Of a stretch of DNA of 44,568 nucleotides, positions 302 to 26,854 are shown piece by piece. The translations under genes were made by a program, and so were the position numbers. Below the pieces are notes generated by a model. It made no database searches and was not told the DNA's origin. It saw only the letters and a list, made by a program, of their open reading frames with translations. This DNA comes from a virus, in the UHGV virus genome UHGV-0171754; one strand, 5' to 3'. The stretch's first letter is position 1. The number at the start of each line of letters is the position of its first letter.

Positions 302-978
302 TTATGCGGGGTTCTGCCGCGCCATTTCATCCAGCGCAACGCGTTCCATTAGCTTAATATCTTTAAACGCACGCTGCGCGTTTTCGACGCCATGCATCTT
401 AAACAGCCATTCCAGTACGCCGTAGTCGATGCCGTATGCGCCACCGAATCCGGTGCGCCATTGCGTGGAGCAATCTGTGAAGACGGCGACTACCTTCGCG
501 TTGTCGGGCCATAGCGCAACTGGTGGGCAAACATCTTCAGGGGCCGCGCCCCATAAACTCGCGGCTAAATCTTCGGAGGGTGGCGGCGGGCCATAAAAGC
601 GTCGCGCCGCCTCAATTAGTTTTTTTCACGCAATCCCATCAGTTCAAGATAGTACGACGTATGGAACACGCCGAACGCGCGAGGATAGTTAACTACCAGG
701 CGGCGGACGTTCTCCGCGTTAAATTCGTCAGGCAGATTCCAGCCTTCAGCGACGTGCATGATGGCCTCGACCATAACGTTAAAGCCTTCCGGGTCGTTGT
801 CGTCATATTCCGACAGCTTGCGCTCCGTGTCCTGCATGGTCTGCGAAAACTCGTCAATCGGGCGGTGGCGTACTGTAAACGTCATTTTACCCGGTTCGTT
901 CTCACCAGGGCGCGGGATCTCAATCGGCAGCTTAAAGGTCGGTTTAGGGTCTAGTGTAAAGAGTGGTGCTTTAGCCAT
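302..978 (-). CDS. Tail assembly chaperone GT fusion made by programmed -1 ribosomal frameshift
   Basis: Heptamer A AAA AAC (minus strand, plus coordinates 619-625) precedes stop TAA (616-618); the -1 frame stays open for 107 codons (LIEAARRFYGPPPPSEDL...DEMARQNPA) to TAA at 302-304. Confidence 0.6.
616..978 (-). CDS. Tail assembly chaperone (lambda gpG-like)
   Basis: 120 aa ORF starting MAKAPLF with GGAG RBS 8 nt upstream; lies between major tail protein and tape measure genes; ends in slippery site A AAA AAC directly before TAA. Confidence 0.65.
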   Translation of the reverse strand: MAKAPLFTLDPKPTFKLPIEIPRPGENEPGKMTFTVRHRPIDEFSQTMQDTERKLSEYDDNDPEGFNVMVEAIMHVAEGWNLPDEFNAENVRRLVVNYPRAFGVFHTSYYLELMGLREKN

Positions 979-994
979 TGTAGTATTCTCCAAT

Positions 995-1016
995 AAAAAG
1001 GGGCCATACAGGCCCC
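995..1016 (-). terminator. Intrinsic terminator after major tail protein gene
   Basis: Stem ggggcc/ggcccc with 5 nt loop, followed on the minus strand by a T5 run. Confidence 0.55.
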
Positions 1017-1046
1017 ATATTAACACCCGCTATTTAAGCGACCAAA

Positions 1047-1772
1047 TTACGACAGCGCTTCAACCAGGTCCTTACGGTAAATAACCATATCGGATTGCAT
1101 GGTCAGAGTAGACTCCACCGTCTCCACGTTGTTTACTTCAGCGGACGGAATCTTCTGGAAAGACACCTTAGCCGGGTAAATACGAATTTCACCTTTGCCG
1201 CTTGCCGCTGCCGGGTTGGTGAACTTAATCACAGTGGTTTTCTGTGTGTCGTCCAGGTCTTCCAGAATCGGGCGGATCGGGTCTTCTTCGTCGTGGGTGA
1301 AAGTGTAGGTCTGGACCAACGGGTTTTTCGTGGTATTCAGACTGATCGCAGTATTCACCTGCAACGGCTGGAAGGTAGTAGTCTGCTGGTCGCCACCAGA
1401 CACGGCGACGTTAGTGATAAACGGGAAGTCGATAAAGCTCGACACCTTCACCACCTCGCCTGGTGTGCCTACGCTGAAAGCACCGGTCGGGTATTTGGTG
1501 GCGTCTTGAGTATCGAAGCGCGCCAGCGTAACGTCGTTGGTAGCCACTTTACCCACGATGAACGCTCGGTTCAGCGCACGGACCCACGGAGTTTTAGTGA
1601 ACATTACCACGTCGCCGACTTTCAGGCCATGAGAAGCCGCGCAGGTGATAACGCAACCTTTCGTAAGGTCAGAGATAGACGCGGCGGCGTTGGTAGCTGC
1701 CGTAACAGCGATGCCGCTGCCCAGTACGGACCCAATCTGGACGCTAGACCCGTTAGGAAGTTGATAACCCAT
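1047..1772 (-). CDS. Major tail protein
   Basis: 241 aa from ATG (MGYQLPNG) with AGGAG RBS; position immediately upstream of G/GT chaperone; terminator follows. Confidence 0.7.
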   Translation of the reverse strand: MGYQLPNGSSVQIGSVLGSGIAVTAATNAAASISDLTKGCVITCAASHGLKVGDVVMFTKTPWVRALNRAFIVGKVATNDVTLARFDTQDATKYPTGAFSVGTPGEVVKVSSFIDFPFITNVAVSGGDQQTTTFQPLQVNTAISLNTTKNPLVQTYTFTHDEEDPIRPILEDLDDTQKTTVIKFTNPAAASGKGEIRIYPAKVSFQKIPSAEVNNVETVESTLTMQSDMVIYRKDLVEALS

Positions 1773-1833
1773 AATGAACACTCCTGTTTAGATATACGGT
1801 TCAATGATACAGCACGCGCAGAATAGCGCCAAA

Positions 1834-2256
1834 TCAGGCGCAACAGGTGTAGGGGACTGTAACCACGATGCGGGCGCGATCAACGTCCTCAACCACTGAA
1901 CTGGTGTATGGCGCGTCCTGAAGCTGGAATACAGCGCCGGAAATCTTTACCGCCAGCCACTTATCCGACGTAGCGATGGCGTCCGCCAGTTCGCTCGCGT
2001 ACTGTGTGCCAGTACCCGCGGGGAACACAACGGCAACCTGATAAACGCCTGCATATATTCTCCCCTTTTGCTGGAGGCCCACAAACTGGGTCGGGGCCGG
2101 TAGCAGGTACGGCTCCAGGTAGACACCACTCCCGATTGCGTGGTCCCCTTGCACGTTCTCCCAGTTAACCCGGATCGGACGCTGGCTTGTGCTCAGGCGC
2201 GCCGATAACTCTTCTACCACGCTGTTAAGCGCTTTGCGGATTGCGGTATTGCTCAT
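1834..2256 (-). CDS. Tail terminator protein (gpU-like)
   Basis: 140 aa; position directly upstream of major tail gene as in lambda U-V order; start overlaps upstream stop (TAATG). Confidence 0.5.
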   Translation of the reverse strand: MSNTAIRKALNSVVEELSARLSTSQRPIRVNWENVQGDHAIGSGVYLEPYLLPAPTQFVGLQQKGRIYAGVYQVAVVFPAGTGTQYASELADAIATSDKWLAVKISGAVFQLQDAPYTSSVVEDVDRARIVVTVPYTCCA

Positions 2257-2849
2257 TATTTCACCTTCGAATTAATTTCTGCCGCTACGACGCGAACAAT
2301 CCCCGCGGGCGCTTGTTTACTCCAGCCATACTCAAGTCGCTGCGCGTATGGCACGTTGTTAGTAAACCAGATCGACCCGTATTCACTCGAATCGTAGTGC
2401 GCCAGCACTTCACGCCCTGCGGCTAATGTTGCCGTTCCGGCCTTGTCCACGCGGTCAATAGCACCAACAGCCGGGCGGTCAAACGTCACCTGCCAGTTCC
2501 CCCGGAAGCGTCCGCCGGTGTAATTCTTCGCGGCCCAGCCACGCTGGCGGAACGTGACGTTGCCATTTTTAGTCTTGAATGATACCAGCACGCTGGCGTG
2601 CTTTTTCTGCCCGCGCTTCAGTTTGCCACCATTCTTGCGACGCTGCGCGGCGTTCACCTTGTTCGCGTGCTGGCGGGCCAGCGCGTAAGCCCTGTTAATT
2701 TTCCACCGGCGAGGGTCGCCCACCGGGGAGATCTCAATAAGGCGTCCGAGTATTTGCATCCCGTACGCCCGCACCGCCTTATCGTTGTTCTCCTTCGTCT
2801 TATCCACCCACGTAGCAATAGTGGCGGCGAATGAGTAGACTTCAGCCAC
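2256..2849 (-). CDS. Tail completion protein (gpZ-like)
   Basis: 197 aa; GTG start 1 nt after upstream stop with AAGGGG RBS; size and position match lambda Z. Confidence 0.45.
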   Translation of the reverse strand: MAEVYSFAATIATWVDKTKENNDKAVRAYGMQILGRLIEISPVGDPRRWKINRAYALARQHANKVNAAQRRKNGGKLKRGQKKHASVLVSFKTKNGNVTFRQRGWAAKNYTGGRFRGNWQVTFDRPAVGAIDRVDKAGTATLAAGREVLAHYDSSEYGSIWFTNNVPYAQRLEYGWSKQAPAGIVRVVAAEINSKVK

Positions 2850-2850
2850 G

Positions 2851-3204
2851 TTAGCCCCTTAGCTGTAGTTGAAACAGCATGGTCTGGCCTGCCGGTTGCA
2901 GGGGGTTTGGATTGATAACCCGGTAGTCTGTATTGTTCAGGCTAACCAAATCCCCGACCTTTACCTGATTGACGGCCTGACACAAAAACTTCACATCACC
3001 GGCAACGATACGCGTCCCGTCGATCTCGCTCGGCTTGTACTCCTCTCGAAGACCGATGACGTCAAACGAGGTCGGAGGGATGACCACTTCGTCGCCGTCT
3101 ACGCGGTCGACTGTACCAGGACGCGTCACCGTAGCCGTCATGCCGTACTTTTTAATCAGCGGATTGACTTTCCGCTTTAACCCCGCGTAATTAAAGCCCG
3201 CCAT
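2851..3204 (-). CDS. Head-tail joining protein (gpFII-like)
   Basis: 117 aa from ATG (MAGFNYAG) with GGAGG RBS; position between connector and tail completion genes. Confidence 0.5.
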   Translation of the reverse strand: MAGFNYAGLKRKVNPLIKKYGMTATVTRPGTVDRVDGDEVVIPPTSFDVIGLREEYKPSEIDGTRIVAGDVKFLCQAVNQVKVGDLVSLNNTDYRVINPNPLQPAGQTMLFQLQLRG

Positions 3205-3307
3205 TATCATCCTCCTGTACCGGTGGTTCCGGTTCTGGCGCTGGTTCCGGTTCTGGTTGGCGTTTAGTATTTGCGGCGATAATAGCCGCCAGTAATGCAG
3301 GATTCAT
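3191..3307 (-). CDS. Small Pro/Glu-repeat ORF (38 aa), hypothetical
   Basis: MNPALLAAIIAANTKRQPEPEPAPEPEPPVQEDDNGGL; ATG overlaps upstream stop (TAATATG); below the 60 aa track threshold; built on a tandem DNA repeat. Confidence 0.25.
   Translation of the reverse strand: MNPALLAAIIAANTKRQPEPEPAPEPEPPVQEDDNGGL
3224..3255. repeat. Tandem direct repeat ggttccggttctgg x2
   Basis: Two copies separated by cgct; encodes the PEPEP repeat on the minus strand. Confidence 0.7.
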
Positions 3308-3308
3308 A

Positions 3309-3809
3309 TTACCCCCGGAATACATCAAAATTACCCGCTGCGTTGCCGTCTGAGTCAATCCAGTGGCCCAGCAAGCCATCCCACCACGGGAACGAGACAC
3401 CGCTACCAATCGTCGCAGGGTCATATTCCATCGTGATCGGGCCAACAGTTTCGCGGATAGTCTCCTTACCGCTGCCCACAGGAGAAATATCAACCTCGTC
3501 CGCCACCAACATCGCCAACCGGTAAACGGCTTGCTCAACGGCAACGGGGATTGATGCGAAGTCTACTATTTGCCCTGCAGGCACTACTGCCAAAACTTCA
3601 GTGAGCGTGTCGCGCACCGGCTTGCCGTCAGATGGGTAATTGATGCGAGGCCATGCGTCGATGCCTGTCTGGTCTGCGGGTTCGCCGATCCAGTTGATGC
3701 CGTTAAGGAAGTCATTAACGACGGTGAGGTATCGCGTTGCATCGCTCAGCGTGACTTCAACGCCTCGCGCTGCGGCATAATCGACAAAGGTTTGCGGGTC
3801 GCCATACAT
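3309..3809 (-). CDS. Head-tail connector/adaptor protein (gp6-like)
   Basis: 166 aa from ATG (MYGDPQTFVDYAAARG) with GGAG RBS; immediately downstream of major capsid gene. Confidence 0.5.
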   Translation of the reverse strand: MYGDPQTFVDYAAARGVEVTLSDATRYLTVVNDFLNGINWIGEPADQTGIDAWPRINYPSDGKPVRDTLTEVLAVVPAGQIVDFASIPVAVEQAVYRLAMLVADEVDISPVGSGKETIRETVGPITMEYDPATIGSGVSFPWWDGLLGHWIDSDGNAAGNFDVFRG

Positions 3810-3824
3810 TTCATTCACTCCTAT

Positions 3825-3848
3825 AAAAAAGGCGGGCATAAGCCCGCC
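3825..3848 (-). terminator. Attenuator/terminator after major capsid gene
   Basis: Stem ggcgggc/gcccgcc with 4 nt loop, T-run on minus strand. Confidence 0.5.
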
Positions 3849-3867
3849 CCTTTGGGATGTGCGCCCG

Positions 3868-4968
3868 TTAAGACGCGGTAGTCTCAGTCAGCGTAACCAG
3901 TACGCCAGCCGTTTCCTTGATGTGACGGGTCGGCACTTCCTGTGCGGCCTGGGTCTTACGACGGCCTTTAGTATCACCATCACCCACAGCGCCAACATCT
4001 TGAACGGTTGCCGGTGCGTTGTCTACCTGGCCCTGGTCCAGCTCCCAGTTAGCGGAAGTGGTGATGTCGGACAGTTTGAACGAGCGGACGCCTTCGATCG
4101 GGGTACGAGCGGACGCCTTCAGACGATAGCCTTTAACAGCCACGTTGAAGTCGAACTCACCCTGCCACCAGCGCTCGATGTTCTCGTTACCGCCTTTCTC
4201 CTGCGCCAGCATATCAAGGCCGTTGGTGGTAACTGCAACCGCGCCAGGGACCAGGCCCAGCATGTTACCAGCACCCATAGCATCGGCAGCGGCATCGGAG
4301 ATAATGAAGCGACGGCCCAGGCCATCTCCCATTACCTGGAGATCGCCAATTGCGAATACCTGCTCGGCAGACGGGAGCGCCTGGTATGCAATAAAGTTTG
4401 CCCAGGTAACGCCGTCCATAAACCACGATTTAATCAAAGACGCCTGATCGCCGAACTTAGAAGCCGCCAGCGGGAAGTCTGCCAGGGTCGGGAAGGTACG
4501 ACCGCCAACGCCGTCAACGCGCGCCGGTTGGGTGTATTTTGCCGCTGCGTTGCTTTCGATCGCCGCTTTACCCGCACCGATACCCGCTTTCAGGTAGTGC
4601 AACAAAATCGCTTGAGTGGCCTGCGCCGCAATCTCAGCCGCAACGCTGTTAACGTTGGTTTCGATCTTAGCCATCATAGCCTTAGTGATTGCCACCGGAC
4701 CCACTTTCGCGGACAGGTTGACGGAGTTGGTCAGCATACGCGCCAGCACTTTTGCGGTCGCCGGAGTACCTACAGGGGCATAGGCGTTACGGTCGGTAAC
4801 TAGGTTGGCGATCAAGCCTACGGACATTTTTTCTACAACATCCTTCAGCACTTCACCCGTACCGAGAACAACAGCGCCATTTGCGGCGGCGTTGAACACG
4901 TTCAGGTTATCGGGGATCATTTGCGTAACCGCGGTGACGAGTTTACGCTGGAACACTGTTAAAGACAT
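3868..4968 (-). CDS. Major capsid protein
   Basis: 366 aa; AAAGGA RBS 7 nt before ATG; position after scaffold and before connector genes; sequence looks like a major capsid protein of the HK97-fold class; hairpin terminator follows. Confidence 0.8.
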   Translation of the reverse strand: MSLTVFQRKLVTAVTQMIPDNLNVFNAAANGAVVLGTGEVLKDVVEKMSVGLIANLVTDRNAYAPVGTPATAKVLARMLTNSVNLSAKVGPVAITKAMMAKIETNVNSVAAEIAAQATQAILLHYLKAGIGAGKAAIESNAAAKYTQPARVDGVGGRTFPTLADFPLAASKFGDQASLIKSWFMDGVTWANFIAYQALPSAEQVFAIGDLQVMGDGLGRRFIISDAAADAMGAGNMLGLVPGAVAVTTNGLDMLAQEKGGNENIERWWQGEFDFNVAVKGYRLKASARTPIEGVRSFKLSDITTSANWELDQGQVDNAPATVQDVGAVGDGDTKGRRKTQAAQEVPTRHIKETAGVLVTLTETTAS

Positions 4969-5065
4969 ATCGAAATCCTTTGAGTTGTGAGCATTCGCCC
5001 AGTACCGTTAATGTTACCTTAGATTTACGCGCTCGCAAAATCGCCCGCTTTCGCGGGCAATTTGC

Positions 5066-5767
5066 TTACTCGTCGCCCATTTTAGCGATGATTTCACCAG
5101 CCTGTTTCGTCAGATCGGTGATGCCGAAGCTGTGGCCCATAGAGATTTTCGACTTCACATCTTCGACAACATGCGTCGGTTTGCTCGGCGCACCACCGGC
5201 TGGCGTGCCAGCCAGGACGGATGCAAAATCGGCGTTATTACGGAACTCTTTTTCAAGCTCTTCCATAGTCAGCGCGGACGGTTTACCATCCTGCAAGACA
5301 CGCACCTTCAAGCTGCCGTCTTCGCCGTCTTCCAGCGTCAGGCGGTCCATTACGTGGCGTTGCATGATTCCAGCATTCTTACCGAACAGCTTCGAGGCCA
5401 AATCTTTGGCAGCGCTGCCGATGGTTAGATCGTGGATCTGCTTGCGGTAGGCTTCGATTTTTCCCGATGTGTCCGCTTCATGTTTTGCGAACTTATCTTT
5501 CCAGGACTTATCGATCGCTTCGAGGTCGCCATTTTTGCGCGCGGCGGCTTCCTCTTTCTCTTTCGCAAGGCGCTCAGCTTCGGCGCGACGTTCGGCTTCT
5601 GCTCTCTTCTCGCTAACCAGCTTCGCGTTGTTGTCTTTCAGACCCTTGATCTCCGCCTGTACTTCTTCGGCGGTCATGAACGTGGATTTATACCCATCGC
5701 CATCGGCAACAAATAAAGCCTTCATGCCTTCTGGCAACGCGTCATATTCTGCTTTAGTAAGTTTCAT
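5066..5767 (-). CDS. Scaffolding protein
   Basis: 233 aa from ATG (MKLTKAEYDAL) with AGGGGGA RBS; charged coiled-coil-like (KRAEAERRAEAERLAKEKEEAAARK); sits between morphogenesis and capsid genes. Confidence 0.6.
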   Translation of the reverse strand: MKLTKAEYDALPEGMKALFVADGDGYKSTFMTAEEVQAEIKGLKDNNAKLVSEKRAEAERRAEAERLAKEKEEAAARKNGDLEAIDKSWKDKFAKHEADTSGKIEAYRKQIHDLTIGSAAKDLASKLFGKNAGIMQRHVMDRLTLEDGEDGSLKVRVLQDGKPSALTMEELEKEFRNNADFASVLAGTPAGGAPSKPTHVVEDVKSKISMGHSFGITDLTKQAGEIIAKMGDE

Positions 5768-5857
5768 GCTATCCCCCTGGGATTGTGGCAAAGCGGGCCA
5801 CCCGCTTGACTTCACGCCTTAATATTATCAGCGATAAAAATAATCGCAAAATTCGCT

Positions 5858-5902
5858 TGCACTGCGGGAATTGGTTGCGCTATATTGGTTGCACACCAAC
5901 AA
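5858..5902 (+). promoter_or_regulatory. Sigma70-like promoter (TTGCAC-18-TATATT) with two TTGGTTGC octamers and a TTGGT-N5-ACCAA palindrome over the start site
   Basis: -35 at 5858-5863, -10 at 5884-5889, octamers at 5874-5881 and 5888-5895, palindrome at 5888-5902; near-identical to the leader at 15946-15960. Confidence 0.5.
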
Positions 5903-5915: not shown

Positions 5916-6680
5916 ATGAGACTGACGAAAGACATTAAAAATCAGATCCTAGCTAACATCCTGCGCGACCACGAAATCGCTACCGAAGCCAAAACAATCA
6001 TGATGGACTCTCGCGACCTGGCGTACGCAATCACGCTGGACTGTATGCCGGACGGCATTCGCACATTCGCCGCGCTACGCGAGCATATCAAGGCAATCCG
6101 CGATGACCAGTCGCAGATGTACGGCGTCAGCGTATACACCAACAAGGCGACGTATAGTTATAACACCGACCGCCCGAAGGGTATCGGCAGCGTTTACGAC
6201 GCCACCTTTGAAATCAACGCAGGCGGAAATGTTCGCACCTTGTCCTTGAGCGGTGACGGTCGCCAATACCGCGTACATCGCGGATACTGGGAAGAGAAAT
6301 ATATGAATAAGCTCTCGCCTGATCTCGGCGATATCGTTCCGGGGTTCGAGACAGTTATGCTCGCGTCAGTGTGCGAAGTGGACGAGGAAGGGAAAGCGCT
6401 GCCGATATATCTCCCACGCGGTCGCGCAGACTACCCGGCGGACCATGACTTCTGTAAGCGCCTGGACCGCAACGACAAGGCACGTCGCGAGTTGCGTGCG
6501 AAGTATGACGCGTTCAAACTCACCGTTACCGGTGTACTGGACCTGCACAATACTGACAAGAAGCTGATTAAAGCATGGCCTGAAGTTGAGCAATTCATCC
6601 CATACCCGGACAAGCCAAAATCCACGGCGGTGGCGCTGGATGTGAAAACACTCAACGAGATTTGCGGCATTCCTCGCTAA
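5916..6680 (+). CDS. Hypothetical protein (254 aa), opposite-strand insertion in the morphogenesis module
   Basis: ATG (MRLTKDIKNQ) with GAGGA RBS 7 nt upstream; own promoter and a bidirectional terminator; no recognisable motif. Confidence 0.7.
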   Translation: MRLTKDIKNQILANILRDHEIATEAKTIMMDSRDLAYAITLDCMPDGIRTFAALREHIKAIRDDQSQMYGVSVYTNKATYSYNTDRPKGIGSVYDATFEINAGGNVRTLSLSGDGRQYRVHRGYWEEKYMNKLSPDLGDIVPGFETVMLASVCEVDEEGKALPIYLPRGRADYPADHDFCKRLDRNDKARRELRAKYDAFKLTVTGVLDLHNTDKKLIKAWPEVEQFIPYPDKPKSTAVALDVKTLNEICGIPR

Positions 6681-12957: not shown

Positions 12958-13020
12958 ATTTAATTAATTCCTGATTAGTGTACTGGGGACAATATATCAT
13001 GGGACTTATTGAGGCGGGCA

Positions 13021-13046
13021 ATAAAAAGCCCGGATAATACCGGGCT
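13021..13046 (-). terminator. Intrinsic terminator ending the lysis-cassette transcript
   Basis: Stem agcccgg/ccgggct, 6 nt loop, T5 on minus strand. Confidence 0.65.
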
Positions 13047-13053
13047 TGATTGT

Positions 13054-14242: not shown

Positions 14243-14278
14243 AAAAAAGTCCCAGTAAGTTTTAGCTCACTGGGACTA
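14243..14278 (-). terminator. Intrinsic terminator immediately upstream of the lysis cassette
   Basis: Stem agtcccagt/actgggact, 12 nt loop, T6 on minus strand abutting the holin ATG. Confidence 0.55.
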
Positions 14279-14294
14279 TATCACGCTTGCATAA

Positions 14295-15160: not shown

Positions 15161-15349
15161 TTAACATTTCTCGGCCTCCAGAAATACCCCATGCTTGCGT
15201 ATAAACTTGCGCACGTTATGCGGGCGCATATCACAACGGCAGCGCTTAATAGCCCATACCTGCGGCCCGTAACGATAACTGACCCGCTCTTCGGCGATCC
15301 ACTCCGCAAGCTCGGAGTCCGTCACCTGGTCGCTTAGTCGAATCATCAT
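15161..15349 (-). CDS. Small hypothetical protein (62 aa)
   Basis: ATG overlaps upstream stop (ATGA); GGAGA RBS. Confidence 0.45.
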   Translation of the reverse strand: MMIRLSDQVTDSELAEWIAEERVSYRYGPQVWAIKRCRCDMRPHNVRKFIRKHGVFLEAEKC

Positions 15350-15615
15350 TTGCTCAGTCTCCAGTGTTTGCCTACCCGCTCAACGGCGGGCTTCCGGCGT
15401 AATGTAATACGAATACCCATTGGTTGCAAGGAGGTCCGCACCCTGAAATCGTGTTGTGCTGCGAACTGGTGCAAGTAACGAGTCTGCGTCAGTGGCTTCA
15501 CGTCATCGCGATAGCACCAGAACACAGAATCGCCCTCAGTCGCATTCTTAGCCCATATTCGTATGCAATGCAGGGGAATATGCCACGAAAGCTGTTTTGC
15601 GCGTCTACGGCTCAT
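15346..15615 (-). CDS. Small basic hypothetical protein (89 aa)
   Basis: AAGGGG RBS 5 nt before ATG; basic N-terminus. Confidence 0.5.
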   Translation of the reverse strand: MSRRRAKQLSWHIPLHCIRIWAKNATEGDSVFWCYRDDVKPLTQTRYLHQFAAQHDFRVRTSLQPMGIRITLRRKPAVERVGKHWRLSK

Positions 15616-15624: not shown

Positions 15625-15930
15625 TTATTTCGCAAGCCGGGCAAATAGTTCGCGCTGGGCTTTAATCCGGGCGACGTTTGCCACTGCCGTCTCACCGATC
15701 CCGAAGCGATACGCCAGGCGCTCGCGGGAGAATGCCTGCGCGTATGCATGGATGGCCTTACGCAACGGCCTCAGTTCGTCCATGCTGGCGCCCATACCGT
15801 AAAGCGCGCTGCGAAGTGATTGATGCGCCAGTATCGCTACCTGAAGCGCCGAGTCTACGTTGCTGTTTAGTGCCTTCGCTTCGTCCAGCTTTGCCACGGC
15901 CAGGGAGTAATTCCAGATAATCGCTTTCAT
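15625..15930 (-). CDS. Putative HTH regulator, first gene of the leftward regulatory/lysis operon
   Basis: 101 aa; GAGGA RBS; C-terminal segment FGIGETAVANVARIKAQRE resembles a helix-turn-helix; promoter/operator immediately upstream. Confidence 0.5.
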   Translation of the reverse strand: MKAIIWNYSLAVAKLDEAKALNSNVDSALQVAILAHQSLRSALYGMGASMDELRPLRKAIHAYAQAFSRERLAYRFGIGETAVANVARIKAQRELFARLAK

Positions 15931-15945
15931 TGTTCAGTCCTCATG

Positions 15946-15995
15946 TTGGTGTGCAACCAATATATCAGGGTGCCAGGCGGGGCGCAACCAATATT
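15946..15995 (-). promoter_or_regulatory. Promoter with extended -10 (TGaTATATT), two TTGGTTGC octamers and TTGGT-N5-ACCAA operator
   Basis: Minus-strand reading attggttgcgccccgcctggcaccctgatatattggttgcacaccaacatgagga ATG; leader nearly identical to 5884-5910. Confidence 0.5.
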
Positions 15996-16145
15996 AATCA
16001 CGCGCATGAAAAAGTCGATCGCTATCTGCTGCAACTGCAAACCGCATTTTTCACCCCCCATTCTGCAACTTGCATTGGTTGCCTAGTTCAGCGACGACCG
16101 CAATCCGCAACATGCTGCCGTGTATTTTGCAATCCTGGATTTTAT

Positions 16146-16198
16146 GCAGTCTCAGACGAGGGGGGTGACAGACCCCCCGTCTAGTCTGAAAGACTGGG
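16146..16198. other. Element B hairpin: interrupted palindrome agacgagggggg-tgacaga-cccccc-gtct plus agtct-gaa-agact
   Basis: Same arms as the window-junction palindrome but different loop (tgacaga versus ccaatga). Confidence 0.6.
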
Positions 16199-16305
16199 GT
16201 GCTGTCCCGCTGTCCCGCTCCTCCCCAGGCCGCGTCATCCGGGGCGGGACAGGGGTGCTGTCCCGCTTTGTCCCGCCTCCTGTTTGTCCCGCTTTTTGTC
16301 CCGCT
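16199..16305. repeat. Element B: array of 7 GTCCCGC / GCGGGAC heptamers, homologous to window positions about 80-150
   Basis: Copies at 16204-16210, 16212-16218, 16245-16251(rc), 16259-16265, 16270-16276, 16285-16291, 16298-16304; block gggacaggggtgctgtcccgc...tttttgtcccg shared with element A. Confidence 0.8.
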
Positions 16306-16349
16306 TACTTTATGCAGTTTTATTGCATAACTATTCACTATATTTACAC

Positions 16350-16471
16350 TACACGGCAACCAATGCGACCAGCTAAAAACACTCAAAATGGCAACCAATG
16401 CGCGCAAAATTTAATCTCTTAGCGATATGGGAATTCCCATACCGGCAACCAATGCGCGCAAAATTTAATCT
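16350..16471. repeat. Iteron-like direct repeats (28 bp x2 plus one partial copy) with a 16 bp perfect palindrome between them
   Basis: ggcaaccaatgcgcgcaaaatttaatct at 16390-16417 and 16444-16471, partial copy ggcaaccaatgcg at 16354-16366; palindrome tatgggaattcccata at 16426-16441; the last repeat overlaps the 3' end of the primase gene. Confidence 0.75.
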
Positions 16472-18739: not shown

Positions 18740-19069
18740 TTATTTGGAAGTTTTATTATTGCGTACCCAGGAGCGCACTGTGCTCTGATTAATTCCGGTC
18801 AACTCGGCAATCATCGCCCAAGATTTGCCCTCGGCGCGCAAACGGATAACCTGTTTTTTGTATTCTTCCATTTCTTCATTGTGCTTCTGCAGCTTGCTCG
18901 CCGCCGTACCGTTGAGCAATTCCAGCCTGGCGCGCAATTCTTTTTCGGTAAGTCGCAGACGTTCGATTTCAAATAGCACCGCACCCACGGCATCGGTATA
19001 CGCCCATGACCGGCTTGTCTCACTGCAAACAGTCTTCGTTAACATTTCGATTGCGTCGTTTACATTCAT
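18740..19069 (-). CDS. Transcriptional regulator with C-terminal HTH
   Basis: 109 aa; GAGGG RBS; C-terminal GKSWAMIAELTGINQSTVRSWV is helix-turn-helix-like; coiled-coil centre. Confidence 0.55.
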   Translation of the reverse strand: MNVNDAIEMLTKTVCSETSRSWAYTDAVGAVLFEIERLRLTEKELRARLELLNGTAASKLQKHNEEMEEYKKQVIRLRAEGKSWAMIAELTGINQSTVRSWVRNNKTSK

Positions 19070-19083: not shown

Positions 19084-19129
19084 TTGGTTAATGACCAACG
19101 AAACTACACCTAAAACCGCAAGGTGTCAA
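19084..19129 (-). promoter_or_regulatory. Leftward early promoter (TTGACA-17-TAGTTT) with TTGGT-N5-ACCAA operator in the leader
   Basis: -35 = rc of 19124-19129, -10 = rc of 19101-19106, palindrome ttggttaatgaccaa at 19084-19098 between -10 and RBS. Confidence 0.45.
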
Positions 19130-19198
19130 ATCCTTTGGATATTGAAACGGGCACGCACGCGTGTAATAATAATTCCCGTCTCATTGTCTCTTATTGGT

Positions 19199-19234
19199 TA
19201 GCGCCGTCGCATTTTGCTTCGGCGCTTTTTTTTT
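19199..19234 (+). terminator. Strong intrinsic terminator with no upstream + strand gene
   Basis: Stem gcgccg/cggcgc, 13 nt loop, followed by T10; lies in the divergent early control region. Confidence 0.6.
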
Positions 19235-19245
19235 TAAATTAGTTG

Positions 19246-19275
19246 TTGACACCCATCCTGCAACCAATCTATTAT
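19246..19275 (+). promoter_or_regulatory. Rightward early promoter (TTGACA-18-TATTAT) with GCAACCAA octamer in the spacer
   Basis: -35 at 19246-19251, -10 at 19270-19275, octamer at 19260-19267; about 195 nt leader before first ATG. Confidence 0.5.
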
Positions 19276-19471
19276 TCACCCCGTCGACAGGATGCAGGAC
19301 GCAAACTGGAGAGGGGCAACGCAGGGGCCGGATCGAAGTGTCAGGATTCCCAACCGTGATTATATAACCTGGTCCACTACCCGAAAGGGAGAACGCGCAA
19401 CCAGGCAATATGTTAAGGCCACCGACGAAGTTAACTGCCGACACCTAAACTTAACCAATCGGAGATATACC

Positions 19472-20011
19472 ATGTTTGAGCAAATCGGAAACCTGATCAC
19501 TCGCGGCGTAGTAGCACTGGAAATCATCGCTAAGCATTATGAAACCGTTGGCGCTGCCGTAGACCCAAAAGCAAACGGCACCGCTAAGAAAGGCAAGGCC
19601 AAGCCGGAGACTGAAGTCGAAGACGACGATCAGGACGAAGTCGAAGATACGCCTAAAACGAAAAAAGGCGCGGCAAGAGAAACCAAGTCTAAAGGTAAGG
19701 CCAAAAAAGAAGTCGTAGAAGATGACGACGACGATGACGCCGATGACGTGAAACCAGCGAAGGGTAAAAAAGCACCGGCGAAAGGCAAAGGCAAGAAAGA
19801 TGCCGATCCGCTGGCAGAGATGCGCGACGAAATCAAACAGTATGCCGCGATTATCGCCGGTGGTGATGACGACGATGCTAACGACGAATTTGATGACCTG
19901 CTGGAAGCGTTCGAGATCAAATCGATCGCTAAACTGGAAGATGACGACGTAGAAGACTTCCACAAAGACCTGAAAGAAATCGTCGAAACCTATTTCGAAC
20001 TGGAAGACTAA
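19472..20011 (+). CDS. Highly charged low-complexity protein (acidic runs alternating with Lys-rich stretches), first gene of rightward early operon
   Basis: 179 aa from ATG (MFEQIGNLITRG) with GGAGA RBS; segments EVEDDDQDEVEDT, VVEDDDDDDADDV, KPAKGKKAPAKGKGKK, GGDDDDANDEFDD; terminator follows. Confidence 0.65.
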   Translation: MFEQIGNLITRGVVALEIIAKHYETVGAAVDPKANGTAKKGKAKPETEVEDDDQDEVEDTPKTKKGAARETKSKGKAKKEVVEDDDDDDADDVKPAKGKKAPAKGKGKKDADPLAEMRDEIKQYAAIIAGGDDDDANDEFDDLLEAFEIKSIAKLEDDDVEDFHKDLKEIVETYFELED

Positions 20012-20017
20012 TATTAT

Positions 20018-20047
20018 CCGGCCCGCTAATCTGCGGGCCTATTTTTA
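20018..20047 (+). terminator. Intrinsic terminator or attenuator
   Basis: Stem gcccgc/gcgggc with 6 nt loop, then ctattttt. Confidence 0.55.
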
Positions 20048-20059
20048 GAGGACGAGACA

Positions 20060-20311
20060 ATGGCACGCTTCACGCTAATCGAGGCGGTGGATTCCCGCGA
20101 CCAGCGCCCGTACTATTGGCTATTCGAACGCATCGGCAGCTTTCAGTCACGCGTTGCCGTAATAGATAAACGCCGTAACACCCCCGCGCAAATTAAGCGC
20201 ACCACCTTTACTAACCCCGACTTTTATATTTGGGCGGATTCCAATCTGGAATATGTTCGCTTCGCAGTTGCATCCGAAGCAAAAACAATTGACCGCTGGG
20301 AGACAAAATAA
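20060..20311 (+). CDS. Small hypothetical protein (83 aa)
   Basis: GAGGA RBS 7 nt before ATG. Confidence 0.5.
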   Translation: MARFTLIEAVDSRDQRPYYWLFERIGSFQSRVAVIDKRRNTPAQIKRTTFTNPDFYIWADSNLEYVRFAVASEAKTIDRWETK

Positions 20312-20500
20312 ATGGCTATATTCTTTGTTTTATTTCGTTGCCGTATTACCGGCGACGAGCAACCGGAAATTGTTATGAATCAAAACTGGAATTGCTGCTG
20401 GATGCAAGCCCGAGGACTGGCGGCTACCATGAACAATGCCGCTAAGCGGGCCAATGTTGAACATGATTATTACATTGCTCAGTTTTCAAGGGTGGAATAA
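20312..20500 (+). CDS. Small hypothetical protein (62 aa)
   Basis: ATG directly after upstream stop; weak RBS; Cys/Trp-rich. Confidence 0.3.
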   Translation: MAIFFVLFRCRITGDEQPEIVMNQNWNCCWMQARGLAATMNNAAKRANVEHDYYIAQFSRVE

Positions 20501-21930
20501 TGGCGATTAAACCAAAACGTAAAACGCAATCCGGTAGCAATACGGAACACTCATTACTTGGGCCATCCGGTGCTAAAAAGTGGATGGGTTGCCCTGCTGC
20601 CCTGGTGGTGGAAAAAGATATCCCGAACGAATCCGGGCAGGCCGCGATTAACGGTACGAGTATGCACACCGTATCTGAGGTGGTGCTAAACCGCATTATC
20701 GCCGGTGAGAAGCAGATAACCGCGAAGACGTATAAAGGGTGCTACGTCGAGAACGAAGGCAAGGGGCCAGTAAAGGCACACCCGAAAGCGCCGAAAGGCG
20801 GCGTGCTGGTCAACGACGATATGGTTAAACAGTGCGACGCGTACATCGACCACTGGCGACCGCTCCTCGAAGTGGCGGAGTTTGTTCAGCTTGAGATGCG
20901 CGCCGATCTCACCCGCGTCCTACACTCTGGCTTCGAGATCGACGGCAACCGGGTTAAGACGTTCGGCACTGCGGATATGGTCATGGTCATGAAGAAGACC
21001 GACGGCACGTACATGCTGATTGTTGGCGACCTGAAGACGGGGCGGCATAAGGTCGAGGCGAAAGAAAACAAACAGCTTATGCTGTATGCGCTCGGCCTGC
21101 TGCGCAAGCTGCAATCCATGTACGACATCACGACCGTGCGCCTGGTTATCTTCCAGCCATATTGCGGCGGGGCGTCGGAGTGGGATATTTCGGTAGAAGC
21201 CCTGGAGATATTCGCGAAGTTTGCGTCCAAGCGTGCTATCGCCGCCCTGGAAGCGTACGCCCGCGGCAAGAAGGGACTAACCCGCGCGGACTTCCGGCCC
21301 AGCGTCGATGCGTGCCAGTGGTGTCGATTTGCGGATCAGTGTAGTGCCCGCGCTAAGGCCGCAATCGACACGATGACCCCACCGACGGCAACCGACGAAG
21401 ACCTGGGCGACGACGTGAGTATTGCGACAGAGGAAGAATGCGCCAACCATGCCCGCAATATGGCCCGCGAAGCCCGGAAGGCGGCTCGACGCGCGAAGCG
21501 TGGTAAGAAAGAAGCAGCCCCCGGTGCTATGAGCGCTGCGGAACTGCGCAAGGCTTATGAAGGCCTGGACGCAATGCGCCAGCACATCAAGGCTATCGAG
21601 TCCGCGGTATTCAAGGCGGTCATGGCTGGCGATGGCGAATCGCTGGGCCTCAAGATGGTTGCCGGTAGGGAAGGGGTCCGTAAGTGGGCGGACGAGAGCG
21701 AAGTGATTGAAATCTTCACGAAGGCCCGGATCAAGCGCGATGTGATGTACAAAGAAACATTGCTCAGTCCTACGGATGCCGAGAAGGTATTGAAGGACGA
21801 GAAGCCGAAAGTGTGGGCTAAATTATGTAATAAAATCACGCGCGCACCGGCTAAACCGGTATTAGCACCCATCGACGACCCGCGCCCTGCGTGGTCGGAG
21901 GCCACTGACGAGGACTTAAGCAATGAATAA
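20500..21930 (+). CDS. PD-(D/E)XK nuclease of the Cas4/RecB-like class (resembles DUF2800) with C-terminal Cys cluster
   Basis: 476 aa; motifs GTADMVMV, VGDLKTGRH, QLMLYALG and CQWCRFADQC; start overlaps upstream stop (TAATG). Confidence 0.7.
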   Translation: MAIKPKRKTQSGSNTEHSLLGPSGAKKWMGCPAALVVEKDIPNESGQAAINGTSMHTVSEVVLNRIIAGEKQITAKTYKGCYVENEGKGPVKAHPKAPKGGVLVNDDMVKQCDAYIDHWRPLLEVAEFVQLEMRADLTRVLHSGFEIDGNRVKTFGTADMVMVMKKTDGTYMLIVGDLKTGRHKVEAKENKQLMLYALGLLRKLQSMYDITTVRLVIFQPYCGGASEWDISVEALEIFAKFASKRAIAALEAYARGKKGLTRADFRPSVDACQWCRFADQCSARAKAAIDTMTPPTATDEDLGDDVSIATEEECANHARNMAREARKAARRAKRGKKEAAPGAMSAAELRKAYEGLDAMRQHIKAIESAVFKAVMAGDGESLGLKMVAGREGVRKWADESEVIEIFTKARIKRDVMYKETLLSPTDAEKVLKDEKPKVWAKLCNKITRAPAKPVLAPIDDPRPAWSEATDEDLSNE

Positions 21931-22105
21931 AGTATTTGCGATCTTATTGATGTTTTTGCTCGGCGCGCTGGGCTTTATCCTGCATTGCGTGCAAGGCGTG
22001 TTAATGGTGGCGTGGATTGCGAGACATGGCGACCGACCGCCGTTAAGCTGGGTCGAGAACACCATCTACTATGTGACCAGAAATCTTTTTAATGAAAATG
22101 CTTGA
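21923..22105 (+). CDS. Small membrane protein (60 aa)
   Basis: Hydrophobic N-terminus (VFAILLMFLLGALGFIL); GAGGA RBS; overlaps upstream stop. Confidence 0.4.
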   Translation: MNKVFAILLMFLLGALGFILHCVQGVLMVAWIARHGDRPPLSWVENTIYYVTRNLFNENA

Positions 22106-22137
22106 CCGCTTAGGCGCAACCAAGTAGATTAGCAACC
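22102..22137 (+). promoter_or_regulatory. Candidate promoter (TTGACC-17-TAGATT) with two GCAACCAA octamers
   Basis: -35 at 22102-22107, -10 at 22125-22130, octamers at 22116-22123 and 22130-22137. Confidence 0.4.
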
Positions 22138-22195
22138 AAGCCGAACGGGGTGGCTCATAATAACCCCGATACATGTGAGAATGAGGAATTGGAAA

Positions 22196-22912
22196 ATGGC
22201 TAAAGTCAACCTGAAAAATGTGCGCGTATGTTTCCTTAAAATTTGGGAACGTGATACCCCTAAACAGGATGGACAAAAACCGGCATACCGTGCAGTGATT
22301 CTTCTTGATAAAGAAGATCCGCAGGTGGACAAAGTGGAAGCGGCAGCGCGCGCAGTGCTCACCGACAAGCTGAAATCCGAGAAGAATGCTGATAAGTGGA
22401 TGGACCGCCACTACGCCCAGGATTCTAAGGAATGCGCAGTCCGCGACGGTGACGAGCGCGACGAAGTAACCGAAGAATTCGAAGGCATGTTGTACATCAA
22501 CGCTAAATCGTTCAAACAGCCAAACATTCAAACGTCACTCGGCGAGAAGCAGACTGAACAAGGTCTGACCGTAGAAGGCGACGAGATCGAAGGCCAGGAG
22601 ATCTACTCCGGTTGTTATTGCAACGTGTCCCTGGATATTTGGGCGTGGAACAATACCAACGGCAAGGGACTCGGTGCCGGTCTTTTGGGTCTGCGCTTCC
22701 GCGATGACGGCGAAGCCTTCGGCGGTGGCGGATCTTCTTGCTCCGACGAAGACCTGGGCGACGACGACGAAGATGAAGTGCCACGCAAGTCCAAAAAGTC
22801 AAAACGTCGTGATGACGATGACGAAGATGAAAAACCTCGTAAACGTCGTAAGCCACGCGATGACGAAGATGATGACGACGACGAAGCGCCACGTAAACGT
22901 CGCCGCCGTTAA
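22196..22912 (+). CDS. Putative ssDNA-binding protein (resembles DUF2815) with charged low-complexity C-terminal tail
   Basis: 238 aa from ATG (MAKVNLKNVRVCF) with GAGGA RBS; lies between the Cas4-like nuclease and DNA polymerase; tail DDDEDEVPRKSKKSKRRDDDDEDEKPRKRRKPRDDEDDDDDEAPRKRRRR. Confidence 0.55.
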   Translation: MAKVNLKNVRVCFLKIWERDTPKQDGQKPAYRAVILLDKEDPQVDKVEAAARAVLTDKLKSEKNADKWMDRHYAQDSKECAVRDGDERDEVTEEFEGMLYINAKSFKQPNIQTSLGEKQTEQGLTVEGDEIEGQEIYSGCYCNVSLDIWAWNNTNGKGLGAGLLGLRFRDDGEAFGGGGSSCSDEDLGDDDEDEVPRKSKKSKRRDDDDEDEKPRKRRKPRDDEDDDDDEAPRKRRRR

Positions 22913-22930
22913 GGGCAAAGCCCACTATTC

Positions 22931-22957
22931 AAGCCCGCTTAATGCGGGCTTTTTAAT
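22931..22957 (+). terminator. Intrinsic terminator or attenuator
   Basis: Stem agcccgc/gcgggct with 5 nt loop, then ttttaat. Confidence 0.6.
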
Positions 22958-22970
22958 AGGACAATGAAAA

Positions 22971-25429: not shown

Positions 25430-25497
25430 CGGAAATGTTGCTTTTAGCGGAAACGTCGGGCAATATTGTCTGGCGTTTTCTTTTTCGGGGGTGTATA

Positions 25498-26374: not shown

Positions 26375-26414
26375 CGGTATAGTGGGCCGGTTAGCACTAT
26401 CGAGGATTTTAGAA

Positions 26415-26588: not shown

Positions 26589-26631
26589 TTAATACGGCGG
26601 GCTTGTCCCGCCATTTTTTGGAGACATGACG

Positions 26632-26850: not shown

Positions 26851-26854
26851 AGAT

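Follow-up and report, generated by a model that had tools for sequence, protein, structure and literature searches.

An earlier note on the DNA studied here proposed that a palindrome, TTGGT-N5-ACCAA, lies in the leaders of three early promoters and is the operator of a dimeric repressor that co-regulates the three units. This raises the questions of whether the palindrome is the element that is conserved, how many promoters carry it, and which protein might read it. The stretch analysed (the window) is the complete 44,568 bp genome of a Dhillonvirus (HK578-like) coliphage. The genus is handled as virulent in the BASEL paper (PMC8594841), and an integrase or lysogeny module is absent from the annotations of four genomes. 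A literature search on the sequence word described below, on Dhillonvirus promoters and on transcriptomes returned nothing relevant and no earlier description, and a search of the entire window against Rfam at gathering thresholds gave 0 matches. In the following, the term promoter refers throughout to a sequence-inferred pair of hexamers.

The palindromes and the word within them

Exact matches to TTGGTNNNNNACCAA occur three times on both strands of the 44,568 bp, two of them at the positions given earlier, while the first, formerly placed at 5888-5902, in fact lies 3 nt upstream:

5885-5899, plus strand: dyad 1, TTGGTTGCACACCAA, in which the left half (5885-5892) forms a complete motif copy, joined to the -10 hexamer TATATT at 5881-5886
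15946-15960, minus strand: dyad 2, the identical 15-mer in gene orientation, in front of the leftward operon that starts at 15930
15953-15960, minus strand: full motif copy of dyad 2, fused to the -10 hexamer TATATT at 15959-15964
19084-19098, minus strand: dyad 3, which differs in sequence (TTGGTCATTAACCAA in gene orientation) and begins 2 nt past the -10 hexamer TAGTTT

None of 100 dinucleotide-preserving shuffles contained any such match, and allowing one mismatch added no further sites in the window. Among spacings of 0-40 nt between inverted TTGGT and ACCAA, N5 is the only one that recurs, with three pairs against about 0.05 expected per spacing, and it sets the half-site centres 10 bp, or about one helical turn, apart. 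As had been stated, every dyad is located between a -10-like hexamer and a Shine-Dalgarno sequence, and the first two share a near-identical leader, namely the cassette TATATTGGTTGCACACCAACA(A)TGAGGAC, with 8-9 nt between its end and the ATG. Dyads 1 and 2 share the last two bases of TATATT, and all three overlap or abut -10-like hexamers that appear to have proper -35 hexamers at N17-18.

Comparison with relatives yields a different picture for the dyad as a unit. Dyads 1 and 2 are fully kept within the genus, whereas only the AACCAA half of dyad 3 is kept in the divergent relatives L144 and L146, as a full inverted GCAACCAA, with the other half degraded to GTGGT or TTGCT; in HK578-type phages dyad 3 is wholly missing. 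In L146, moreover, a gap of 15 nt, in place of 0 nt, separates a ACACCAAC box from the full motif copy. The 16 other motif copies of the window lack an inverted partner. The dyads are thus non-random, and a location at the putative -10/+1 with half-site centres 10 bp apart is classic for a dimeric HTH repressor. Judged by sequence comparison, however, what is conserved is the asymmetric word ATTGGTTGC, and the dyad does not form the basic unit. A scan of IMG/VR for exact matches to the 15-mer dyad gave more than 120 contigs, mostly unrelated; such matches are expected by chance in so huge a collection and the scan is therefore uninformative.

The unit under selection is an asymmetric 9-10-mer, (A/G)TTGGTTGC(A/C). 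Its exact 8-mer core occurs 19 times in the genome, as against about 1.4-1.9 expected; 15 of these copies fall in non-coding DNA, which makes up 7.3% of the genome, and two more lie in the last codons of genes. In an unbiased ranking the core is among the three most over-represented 8-mers in each of five complete genomes. Every Dhillonvirus examined carries 18-21 copies. The word is likewise the top over-represented 8-mer in three relatives with differing accessory genes: L019 (12 copies; about 73% nucleotide identity across roughly half of the contig), L144 (about 70%; 9 copies in 6.1 kb) and L146 (about 72%; 10 copies in 10.7 kb). Across 202 distinct orthologous alignments the nine motif positions are 99-100% identical, compared with about 88% in the flanks, and 98 distinct contexts hold no information outside positions -1 to +8. 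Direct repeats of the word are spaced by 9, 12, 13, 14, 16, 17, 31, 35 or 54 bp, a variety that leaves a single cooperative geometry unsupported. Taken as a set, the copies have the properties expected of dispersed operators, i.e. one short asymmetric word in many mostly intergenic copies that is conserved despite divergence of its flanks.

Position of the word relative to promoter hexamers

The copies are not placed at random with respect to promoters. In 108 contexts, -10-like hexamers on the same strand start at offsets -4 (n=24), +10 (n=13) and +27 (n=16), and those on the opposite strand at -8/-7 (n=14) and +8/+9 (n=13), where the background is 1.4 per offset. Three registers can be distinguished. 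In register (i) the TTGC of the word forms the first four bases of the -35 hexamer; in register (ii) the copy lies in the spacer and ends 1-2 nt 5' of the -10; in register (iii), to which the three dyads belong, it is fused to the -10 and covers the presumed start site. Five or more promoters have a register (i) copy; in these a good -10 follows at exactly N17, and the copy is always in sense orientation. The promoters and the remaining copies are as follows:

5857-5886, plus strand: sigma70-like promoter of the gene at 5916, TTGCAC-N18-TATATT
5871-5878, plus strand: motif copy in the spacer of that promoter, ending 2 nt 5' of the -10
15987-15959, minus strand: promoter of the leftward 15930 operon, TTGCGC-N17-TATATT
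15984-15991, minus strand: motif copy giving the TTGC of the -35 TTGCGC (15982-15987), N17 from the -10
19129-19101, minus strand: promoter of the HTH/primase-helicase unit, TTGACA-N17-TAGTTT
19246-19275, plus strand: promoter of the rightward replication-gene operon, TTGACA-N18-TATTAT, the best consensus promoter of the genome
19260-19267, minus strand: inverted motif copy in the spacer of the 19246-19275 promoter, ending 2 nt 5' of the -10
22116-22123 and 22132-22139, minus strand: two inverted copies bracketing the -10 of TTGACC-N17-TAGATT (22102-22130, plus strand)
26351-26370, plus strand: element whose first motif copy supplies the -35 of TTGCTG-N17-TATAGT (26355-26383)
26363-26370, plus strand: degenerate second copy, TTGGTCGC, at the same locus
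29293-29300, plus strand: direct copy supplying the -35 of TTGCAT-N17-TATATT (29297-29325)
29310-29317, plus strand: direct copy in the spacer of the same promoter, ending 2 nt 5' of the -10
31223-31242, no strand assigned: everted pair GCAACCAA-TAGG-TTGGTTGC that flanks and overlaps the -10 hexamer of TTGCAA-N17-TAGGTT (31208-31236, plus strand)
34340-34347, plus strand: motif copy supplying the -35 TTGCAT (N17-AATACT or N16-TAATAC)
16075-16082, plus strand: motif copy in the non-coding region 15931-16464, oriented opposite to the next three copies
16356-16363, 16391-16398 and 16445-16452, minus strand: three direct copies just downstream of the primase-helicase gene
15420-15427, plus strand: motif copy inside and antisense to the gene at 15346-15615, intact in all relatives examined
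39805-39812, plus strand: motif copy within tail gene K, antisense to it, and retained in the relatives examined

One or two copies are present at almost all of the recognisable non-structural promoters, which number about 10-11, so that co-regulation limited to three units understates the reach of the element. The hexamer pairs, seen at about 11 loci, are conserved with a constant spacer length. The promoter of the structural operon, by contrast with these non-structural promoters, has 0 copies. The genes downstream are diverse: SSB and DNA polymerase (22102-22130), Lar-like and SNF2 helicase genes (26355-26383), the genes at 29373 (copies at 29293-29317) and 31297 (pair at 31223-31242), and a Cor-like gene at 34404 (copy at 34340-34347). 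The description of the three original promoters as early is doubtful, since the gene at 5916 (ATG at 5916), a member of the Nmad5 family, is embedded among head genes, and the leftward unit from 15930 continues into holin, endolysin, terminase, portal and head-morphogenesis genes.

A generic scan for sigma70-like promoters found no more sites than in shuffles, and individual promoter calls consequently rest on the register statistics and on conservation. The 5857-5886 region, for example, is conserved in HK578, CHD5UKE2 and Oekolampad, and spacers keep a constant length between genomes while their sequence drifts, as at 15984-15991. That the hexamer pairs drive transcription is inferred. The strongest consensus promoters (19246, 22102 and 19129) harbour inverted copies or a dyad in their core. 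A leftward promoter that would use the copy at 19260 (TTGCAG-N16-TAATTT, 19263-19236) is not conserved in L144 or L146, and this copy is hence taken mainly as an operator in the spacer of the rightward promoter. Five copies (15420, 39805, 16075, 16391 and 16445) have no recognisable promoter, the one at 16075-16082 showing nothing convincing at the usual offsets. The three copies at 16356-16452 are embedded in longer repeats, GCGCGCATTGGTTGCC, and the first of them has a TATAGT at N13.

Two other interpretations of the sequences were set aside. A sigma54 promoter, TGGCAC-N5-TTGC, misfits in its spacing by inspection, and a candidate small RNA whose CTCATTGTC box would pair with a ACAATGAG leader box is not conserved in HK578 or Oekolampad, and the pairing is treated as coincidence.

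A candidate binder and the competing readings

Two proteins of the window had been put forward as helix-turn-helix (HTH) proteins. For the product of 15625-15930 no credible HTH was found (best Pfam hit E = 0.06, below cut-off), and this protein is missing from three divergent relatives that bear the motif. The other assignment is borne out:

18740-19069, minus strand: 109-aa HTH protein, candidate motif-binding regulator (Pfam, conservation, AlphaFold)

This protein matches the Pfam models HTH_23, HTH_28 and Sigma70_r4_2, each above cut-off; a scan of 20 small or unknown proteins with Pfam and PHROG detected an HTH in no other. It is found in all motif-bearing relatives, the divergent ones included. 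Among 20 family members, residues 47-106 are almost invariant and residues 1-45 hypervariable, and the HTH is retained even in the 42%-identical allele of HK578. The AlphaFold model (pLDDT 85) predicts a long central, coiled-coil-like helix (residues 26-79) followed by a C-terminal tri-helical HTH (84-107). In most lineages, motif copies lie in or adjoin the gene's own promoter, whereas in HK578-type phages there is no copy in its proximal promoter. A sequence search and a fold search against solved structures returned only generic, non-significant HTHs of LuxR/GerE, resolvase and transposase type (E > 0.3); Fis-like whole-chain alignments, with an rmsd of about 24 Å, are meaningless, and the distant matches L021-L023 are AT-rich unrelated phages with a generic HTH match only and no motif. 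The word is identical in all three allele classes (at least 89%, about 76% and about 42-49% identity); as the HTH itself is conserved, covariation has no discriminating power here. The 109-aa protein is most likely the binder, an assignment that is circumstantial.

We consider it probable (roughly 0.6) that the word constitutes a dispersed family of some 20 putative operator sites for one sequence-specific phage regulator, likely the 109-aa protein. The three palindromes would then be bivalent members of this family, in which the dyad may engage both HTHs of a dimer while a single site would need one full 8-mer. The sites appear to be built into the core of nearly every non-structural sigma70-type promoter, with replication, DNA-modification, lysis/packaging-proximal and moron units among those covered. 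Occupancy of registers (ii) and (iii) by a protein should keep RNA polymerase out, and the most likely function is therefore a coordinated, in part autoregulatory, shut-off of early and middle transcription while the regulator builds up. Register (i) copies, which replace a consensus -35 in one fixed orientation, may repress too or act as activator sites, and this fixed orientation leaves room for activation as well as repression.

Several alternatives have to be weighed against this dispersed-operator reading. The word could be a promoter element, such as an extended -35 or some other RNA polymerase contact for host sigma70 or for a polymerase modified by the phage, and no dedicated regulator would then be involved. 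The register (i) promoters fit this, as does the match of the candidate's HTH to the Sigma70_r4_2 model; however, the many copies that are inverted, in the spacer or fused to the -10 cannot serve as a -35, at least five copies are antisense to local genes, opposed to local transcription or within coding sequence, and promoters with a consensus TTGAC -35 have the word elsewhere in their core, so that we find this explanation unlikely. Somewhat less plausible is that the word serves replication in the first place, as an iteron or helicase-loading site read by the HTH protein or the primase-helicase, and that its link to promoters is secondary, e.g. through transcriptional activation of origins. 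Six copies do lie in the non-coding region 15931-16464, downstream of the primase-helicase gene and beside GCGGGACA iterons, and only 4 nt separate the HTH gene from the primase-helicase gene directly downstream of it; given that these iterons need a binder, the HTH protein could be an origin-binding protein. Yet the other 13 copies extend over 34 kb at fixed promoter registers, an arrangement for which replication iterons have no need, and the conserved GCGGGACA octamers, tightly clustered at 16190-16310 and 40-300, are better iteron candidates.

The original proposal, three palindromic operators of a dimeric repressor acting on just three early units, with all other copies of ATTGGTTGC irrelevant, accounts for the highly non-random exact N5 dyads at -10/+1 and for the full conservation of dyads 1 and 2 in the genus. 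It leaves aside 16 further exact 8-mers that are equally conserved and equally promoter-locked, and it is at odds with the decay of the second half of dyad 3 in L144 and L146, the absence of that site from HK578-type phages, the displaced ACACCAAC box of L146 and the lack of clear early status for two of the three units; we regard it as very improbable. The least probable reading is binding by a host transcription factor, for instance a member of the GntR/FadR family such as PdhR, whose half-site is ATTGGT and whose box is ATTGGT-N3-ACCAAT. The half-site is indeed similar, and phages that differ in their HTH allele all share an unchanged word, but TTGGT-N3-ACCAA occurs nowhere in the window, by which a PdhR-type N3 box is rejected; most copies are single asymmetric 8-mers that reach into TTGC, which a symmetric GntR dimer does not explain; and the word is retained in divergent metagenomic relatives of unknown host.

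A bolder form of the dispersed-operator reading, doubtful though worth stating, is that the 109-aa protein works as a free-standing '-35 reader' resembling sigma region 4 and, in dual mode, as a temporal switch for the whole genome of a virulent siphophage. Binding to the 9-mer in the spacer or -10 of strong consensus early promoters (19246, 19129 and 22102) would lead to shut-off, whereas at the -35 of promoters without a consensus hexamer (TTGCnn; 15987, 26355, 29297 and 34344) it would allow host RNA polymerase to be recruited or re-targeted, and the hypervariable N-terminal module might be a surface for docking to the polymerase or a host factor, or for evading defence.

Known phage systems and consequences for Dhillonviruses

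Phage regulators with dispersed operators are a well precedented kind. In the temperate phage P1 the immunity repressor C1 recognises a 17 bp operator in monovalent and bivalent sites. The present system is similar in that more than ten copies of one asymmetric operator word lie at promoters of unrelated operons, in that some inverted pairs form incomplete palindromes (bivalent) beside single (monovalent) sites, and in that a single phage-encoded protein is proposed to control all sites. It differs in its 9-10-mer operator, in belonging to a virulent genus with no integrase seen in the annotations, and in a 109-aa candidate that has no detectable relation to any solved structure; with no lysogeny module annotated, the binder does not look like the immunity repressor of a temperate phage. 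The stoperators bound by gp71 of L5 and Bxb1 (L5 being temperate) have a strong orientation bias with respect to transcription, lie within transcription units and stop elongation. Like them, the Dhillonvirus sites fit a pattern of about 20-30 short asymmetric sites in short intergenic regions that are conserved across a phage cluster, but both orientations are present at promoters and positions are locked to the -35 and -10 hexamers.

MotA boxes of T4 are centred at -30, and at that position only, where MotA acts with AsiA in sigma appropriation at middle promoters. A compact asymmetric 9-mer that replaces the consensus -35 while a good -10 is kept has a counterpart here in at least five copies at N17; the centre, however, is at about -35.5, most copies are in the spacer or on the -10, and only the +27 class, 16 of the 108 contexts, takes the -35 position. 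No Pfam or PHROG match to the MotA/AsiA family was found among the 20 small or unknown proteins. The dyads resemble lambda Cro/CI operators in having half-site centres one helical turn apart and in their putative overlap with -10/+1, the classical arrangement for steric repression. Their halves, by contrast, are unequal (a full 8-mer and a 5-mer core), divergent relatives do not preserve the dyad as a whole, since dyad 3 does not retain both half-sites there, and most sites are non-palindromic. Finally, lambda CII sites consist of TTGC-N6-TTGC flanking the -35. In both cases promoters whose -35 departs from consensus have TTGC tetramers there, but here TTGG and TTGC adjoin without a spacer, other registers occur too, and no CII-like protein was detected.

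Dhillonviruses such as SECphi4, Bas14-18 of the BASEL collection and HK578 are standard test phages in studies of anti-phage defence, and our literature search found nothing published on their transcription control. The analysis supplies a testable map in which about 11 promoters are placed to the base, together with a single 9-bp word and a candidate regulator whose putative DNA-reading half is invariant and whose other half is hypervariable. If confirmed, the regulator and its sites would serve phage engineering as a compact orthogonal operator/regulator pair, and a small early protein would be flagged whose variable domain may be a target or an evader of host defences. The dual-mode variant, if true, would amount to a functional analogue of T4 MotA/AsiA sigma appropriation achieved by an unrelated minimal protein. 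Confirmation of the dispersed operators would also explain the temporal programme of the whole genus.

Genome layout and the three dyads

The 44,568 bp of the window make up the whole genome of a coliphage of the genus Dhillonvirus (HK578-like). Its 5-21 kb segment is ~93% identical to phages B2, YD-2008.s, HK1 and others, and 180 phage records match. Genes were assigned by carrying the YD-2008.s annotation over by tblastn.

Gene layout of the window
305-5767 and 34642-44485, minus strand, spanning the record ends: structural genes (YD-2008.s transfer)
5916-6680, plus strand: Nmad5-family gene (nucleotide-modification-associated domain 5; Pfam PF18757, E = 4e-61), a lone rightward gene amid head genes
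15930 to 6695, leftward: long unit of small ORFs, holins, endolysin, SbcD-like nuclease, terminase, portal and head morphogenesis genes
19069-16465, leftward: helix-turn-helix (HTH) and primase-helicase unit
19292-32469, rightward: block of replication and DNA-modification genes

The DNA polymerase is a 763-aa ORF (23138-25429, plus), overlapped by a minus-strand ORF (22925-23926). The YD-2008.s record annotates two pieces instead, a minus-strand 'DNA polymerase I' ORF of 333 aa and a 'DNA polymerase' fragment of 127 aa, which is an artefact of where that record was linearised.

An earlier note had described TTGGT-N5-ACCAA palindromes at three early promoters. The pattern TTGGTNNNNNACCAA indeed has exactly three matches in the window (5885-5899, 15946-15960 and 19084-19098; dyads 1 to 3) and none in any of 100 dinucleotide-preserving shuffles, although dyad 1 had been placed 3 nt too high. 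Allowing one mismatch adds no site in the window, and among spacings of 0-40 nt between inverted TTGGT and ACCAA, N5 is the only one to recur (three pairs vs ~0.05 expected per spacing). All three dyads lie, as proposed, between a -10-like hexamer and the Shine-Dalgarno sequence. The host PdhR-type box, ATTGGT-N3-ACCAAT, is ruled out by its spacing.

Read in gene orientation, dyads 1 and 2 share one 15-mer and belong to a duplicated cassette, TATATTGGTTGCACACCAACA(A)TGAGGAC, and dyad 3 is an independent sequence, TTGGTCATTAACCAA; the recurrence of the N5 geometry in two independent sequences makes a bivalent (dimer) mode of binding credible at these sites. In dyads 1 and 2 the left half falls within a longer word, ATTGGTTGC, repeated directly upstream of them at 5871 and 15984, and an inverted partner at N5 is absent from the remaining copies of the word. 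Two divergent relatives, L144 and L146, have in their HTH-gene leader a complete inverted word, GCAACCAA, as the right half, and GTGGT or TTGCT as the left half; HK578-type phages carry no copy in this leader. The ACACCAAC box of L146 is 15 nt (not 0 nt) away from the full copy. Judged from these comparisons, the conserved entity is not the palindrome: the dyads are word copies fused to the -10 that chance to be followed, at a distance of 5 nt, by an inverted TTGGT core. Dyad 1 controls the Nmad5-family gene at 5916-6680; in HK578 an unrelated 140-aa gene occupies this slot behind the same promoter-operator cassette, which therefore behaves as a portable expression module in a variable (moron-like) slot.

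A compact word in register with promoter hexamers

The 8-mer core of the word, TTGGTTGC, occurs 19 times in the window, compared with an expectation of 1.4 copies if all bases are equally likely and of 1.9 from a third-order Markov model. Its one-mismatch count is just modestly over chance, so the word is sharply defined. By our gene map, non-coding DNA makes up 7.3% of the genome and contains 15 of the 19 copies; two more sit in the final codons of genes, and the other two are truly intragenic. In an unbiased ranking the word comes among the top three over-represented 8-mers in all five complete genomes. Across 98 distinct contexts pooled from seven genomes, information is limited to (A/G)TTGGTTGC(A/C) with none in the flanks, and the element is accordingly a compact asymmetric 9-10-mer, neither a palindrome nor a piece of a longer promoter consensus.

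YD-2008.s, HK578, CHD5UKE2 and Oekolampad each carry 18-21 copies in orthologous places, while the intervening sequence drifts: upstream of the 15930 operon, four different 17-nt spacers separate the two copies across genomes, and the -10 is TATATT in some and TAGATT in others. The identical 8-mer is the most over-represented word in three divergent contigs, L019 (12 copies in 17.2 kb), L144 (9 in 6.1 kb) and L146 (10 in 10.7 kb), which have ~70-73% identity over about half their length and differ in their small genes. In 202 distinct orthologous alignments the nine motif positions are 99-100% identical vs ~88% in the ±20-nt flanks, a contrast somewhat inflated by the partial motif-seeding of the alignments. 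HK578-type phages and Oekolampad have one or two extra copies between the SbcD-like nuclease gene and an endolysin-adjacent small ORF (HK578 ~42060-42110; CHD5UKE2 14254-14284), antisense to the operon and directly before a bidirectional hairpin; the window equivalent (~12958-13053) holds no exact copy.

The register with promoters was scanned with TAnnnT hexamers matching TATAAT at at least 4 of 6 positions, around all copies of the word in seven genomes, which give 108 distinct contexts. Peaks are sharp over a background of 1.4 contexts per offset.

Hexamer start relative to motif start (contexts of 108)
Same strand, -4: 24
Same strand, +10: 13
Same strand, +27: 16
Opposite strand, -8/-7: 14
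Opposite strand, +8/+9: 13

Three placements are seen: the word supplies the TTGC of the -35 hexamer, with a spacer of exactly 17 nt; it lies within the spacer in either orientation, ending 1-2 nt ahead of the -10; or it is fused to the -10 (TAnnTTGGTTGC) or directly follows it.

Predicted promoters and their word copies
5857-5886, plus: TTGCAC-N18-TATATT; spacer copy and dyad 1
15987-15959, minus: TTGCGC-N17-TATATT; -35 copy and dyad 2
19129-19101, minus: TTGACA-N17-TAGTTT; dyad 3
19246-19275, plus: TTGACA-18-TATTAT, the genome's best consensus match; inverted spacer copy
22102-22130, plus: TTGACC-17-TAGATT; inverted copies flanking the -10 on both sides
26355-26383, plus: TTGCTG-17-TATAGT; -35 copy and degenerate copy
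29297-29325, plus: TTGCAT-17-TATATT; -35 copy and spacer copy
31208-31236, plus: TTGCAA-17-TAGGTT; everted pair around the -10
34344 onward, plus: TTGCAT-17-AATACT; -35 copy

No copy accompanies the likely structural-operon promoter (TTGCGA-16-TAATAT, 5849-5822, minus). Since a generic scan found sigma70-like sites not enriched vs shuffles, these promoter calls rest on register statistics and cross-genome conservation.

Other repeats and neighbouring elements

The octamer GCGGGACA occurs 18 times (~1.5 expected), nearly all in two tight non-coding clusters, each of which contains the palindrome CGGGACAGCACCCCTGTCCCG.

Clusters of GCGGGACA
About 40-300: 8 copies, flanked by the tail chaperone genes on one side and the tape-measure gene on the other, at the record ends
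16203-16297: 7 copies, directly downstream of the primase-helicase gene

HK578, CHD5UKE2, Oekolampad and L144 show an enrichment of the octamer as well. This repeat system is independent of the word and looks like either iterons (an origin with another cis site, as in P4 ori/crr) or a packaging site. GCTGCCGT, among the top two over-represented words in all five genomes, has 28 copies in the window (~3 expected), nearly all in coding sequence (for example at 1696, 5312, 7010, 9425 and 10248); the plus strand has 19 of them, and 22 run antisense to their host gene. Possible readings are a skewed Chi-like word, a word related to replication or recombination, or an effect of codon context.

A possible small RNA of ~55-60 nt lies at 19142-19235 (plus), with no plus-strand gene upstream. 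Its candidate promoter (TTGAAA-N17-AATAAT with an upstream TG), back-to-back with that of the HTH gene, is followed by a strong hairpin and T10 terminator (-16.2 kcal/mol, z = -3.3). Hairpin and T-run are kept in L144 and L146 with a different stem sequence. No Rfam match was found, and the potential of its 5' box to pair with the 5916 leader is not conserved.

Proposed mode of action and candidate binder

We read the word as the dispersed operator set of a phage-encoded regulator, with a probability of about 0.6. Protein on the spacer, -10 or +1 sites would block open-complex formation, which makes repression the best-supported function. Promoters with a near-consensus -35 (TTGACA, TTGACC) have copies in occluding positions only, and those with a TTGCnn -35 derive that hexamer from a sense-oriented copy; the latter would fit either competition with sigma region 4, and hence repression, or activation. 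One early-made protein would thereby repress essentially all non-structural promoters, in most lineages including its own. The dimeric repressor at start sites that the earlier note envisaged is probably right as to the type of operator, but its scope of three units was too narrow: the true feature is a genus-wide regulon of ~20 sites set by an asymmetric 9-mer.

Two HTH proteins had been proposed as binders. That from 15625-15930 gives only a sub-threshold hit (E = 0.06), and no homologue was found in L019, L144 or L146. The other, the 109-aa product of 18740-19069, is a good candidate; of 20 small or unannotated proteins scanned, it alone has a credible HTH (HTH_23, 30.8 bits; HTH_28, 28.4; Sigma70_r4_2, 27.8; all over cut-off). 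Its family is tiny: 5.8 billion proteins yield 24 clusters, every one of them Dhillonvirus-like, and tblastn likewise restricts it to the genus. Residues 47-106 are nearly invariant among 20 members, as expected if one protein has to read the same unchanging word at ~20 scattered sites; residues 1-45 come in at least four unrelated versions in phages that are otherwise alike, and the HK578 allele, 42% identical, still keeps the HTH, TGIN(Q/R)ST(V/I)R(S/Q)W. In the AlphaFold2 prediction (pLDDT 85), residues 26-79 form a helix 54 residues long, which is plausibly a coiled coil for dimerisation and leads into a tri-helical HTH at the C-terminus. Fold and sequence comparison with solved structures returned only generic similarity to LuxR/GerE-, resolvase- and transposase-type HTHs. 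Public annotations of the gene are inconsistent (transposase, resolvase, 'recombination nuclease inhibitor gamma') and probably wrong. The assignment is circumstantial. Only 4 nt separate the gene from the primase-helicase gene downstream of it, and the second conserved repeat system, GCGGGACA, needs a binder too. Given a phage-encoded regulator, the odds that this protein binds the word are roughly even.

In logic the nearest analogues are the L5/Bxb1 stoperators and P1 C1, whose many asymmetric operators are scattered over the genome and either stand singly (monovalent) or pair up as incomplete palindromes. Unlike those systems, the present one belongs to a virulent phage, and its word is much shorter, occurs in both orientations and is locked in position to promoter hexamers. 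The -35-class copies resemble T4 MotA boxes and the lambda CII TTGC repeats in position only. Our literature search found no paper on the word or on Dhillonvirus transcriptional control. The regulon is an undescribed example of an already known kind of system, and the finding is of practical use because these phages are widely used models.
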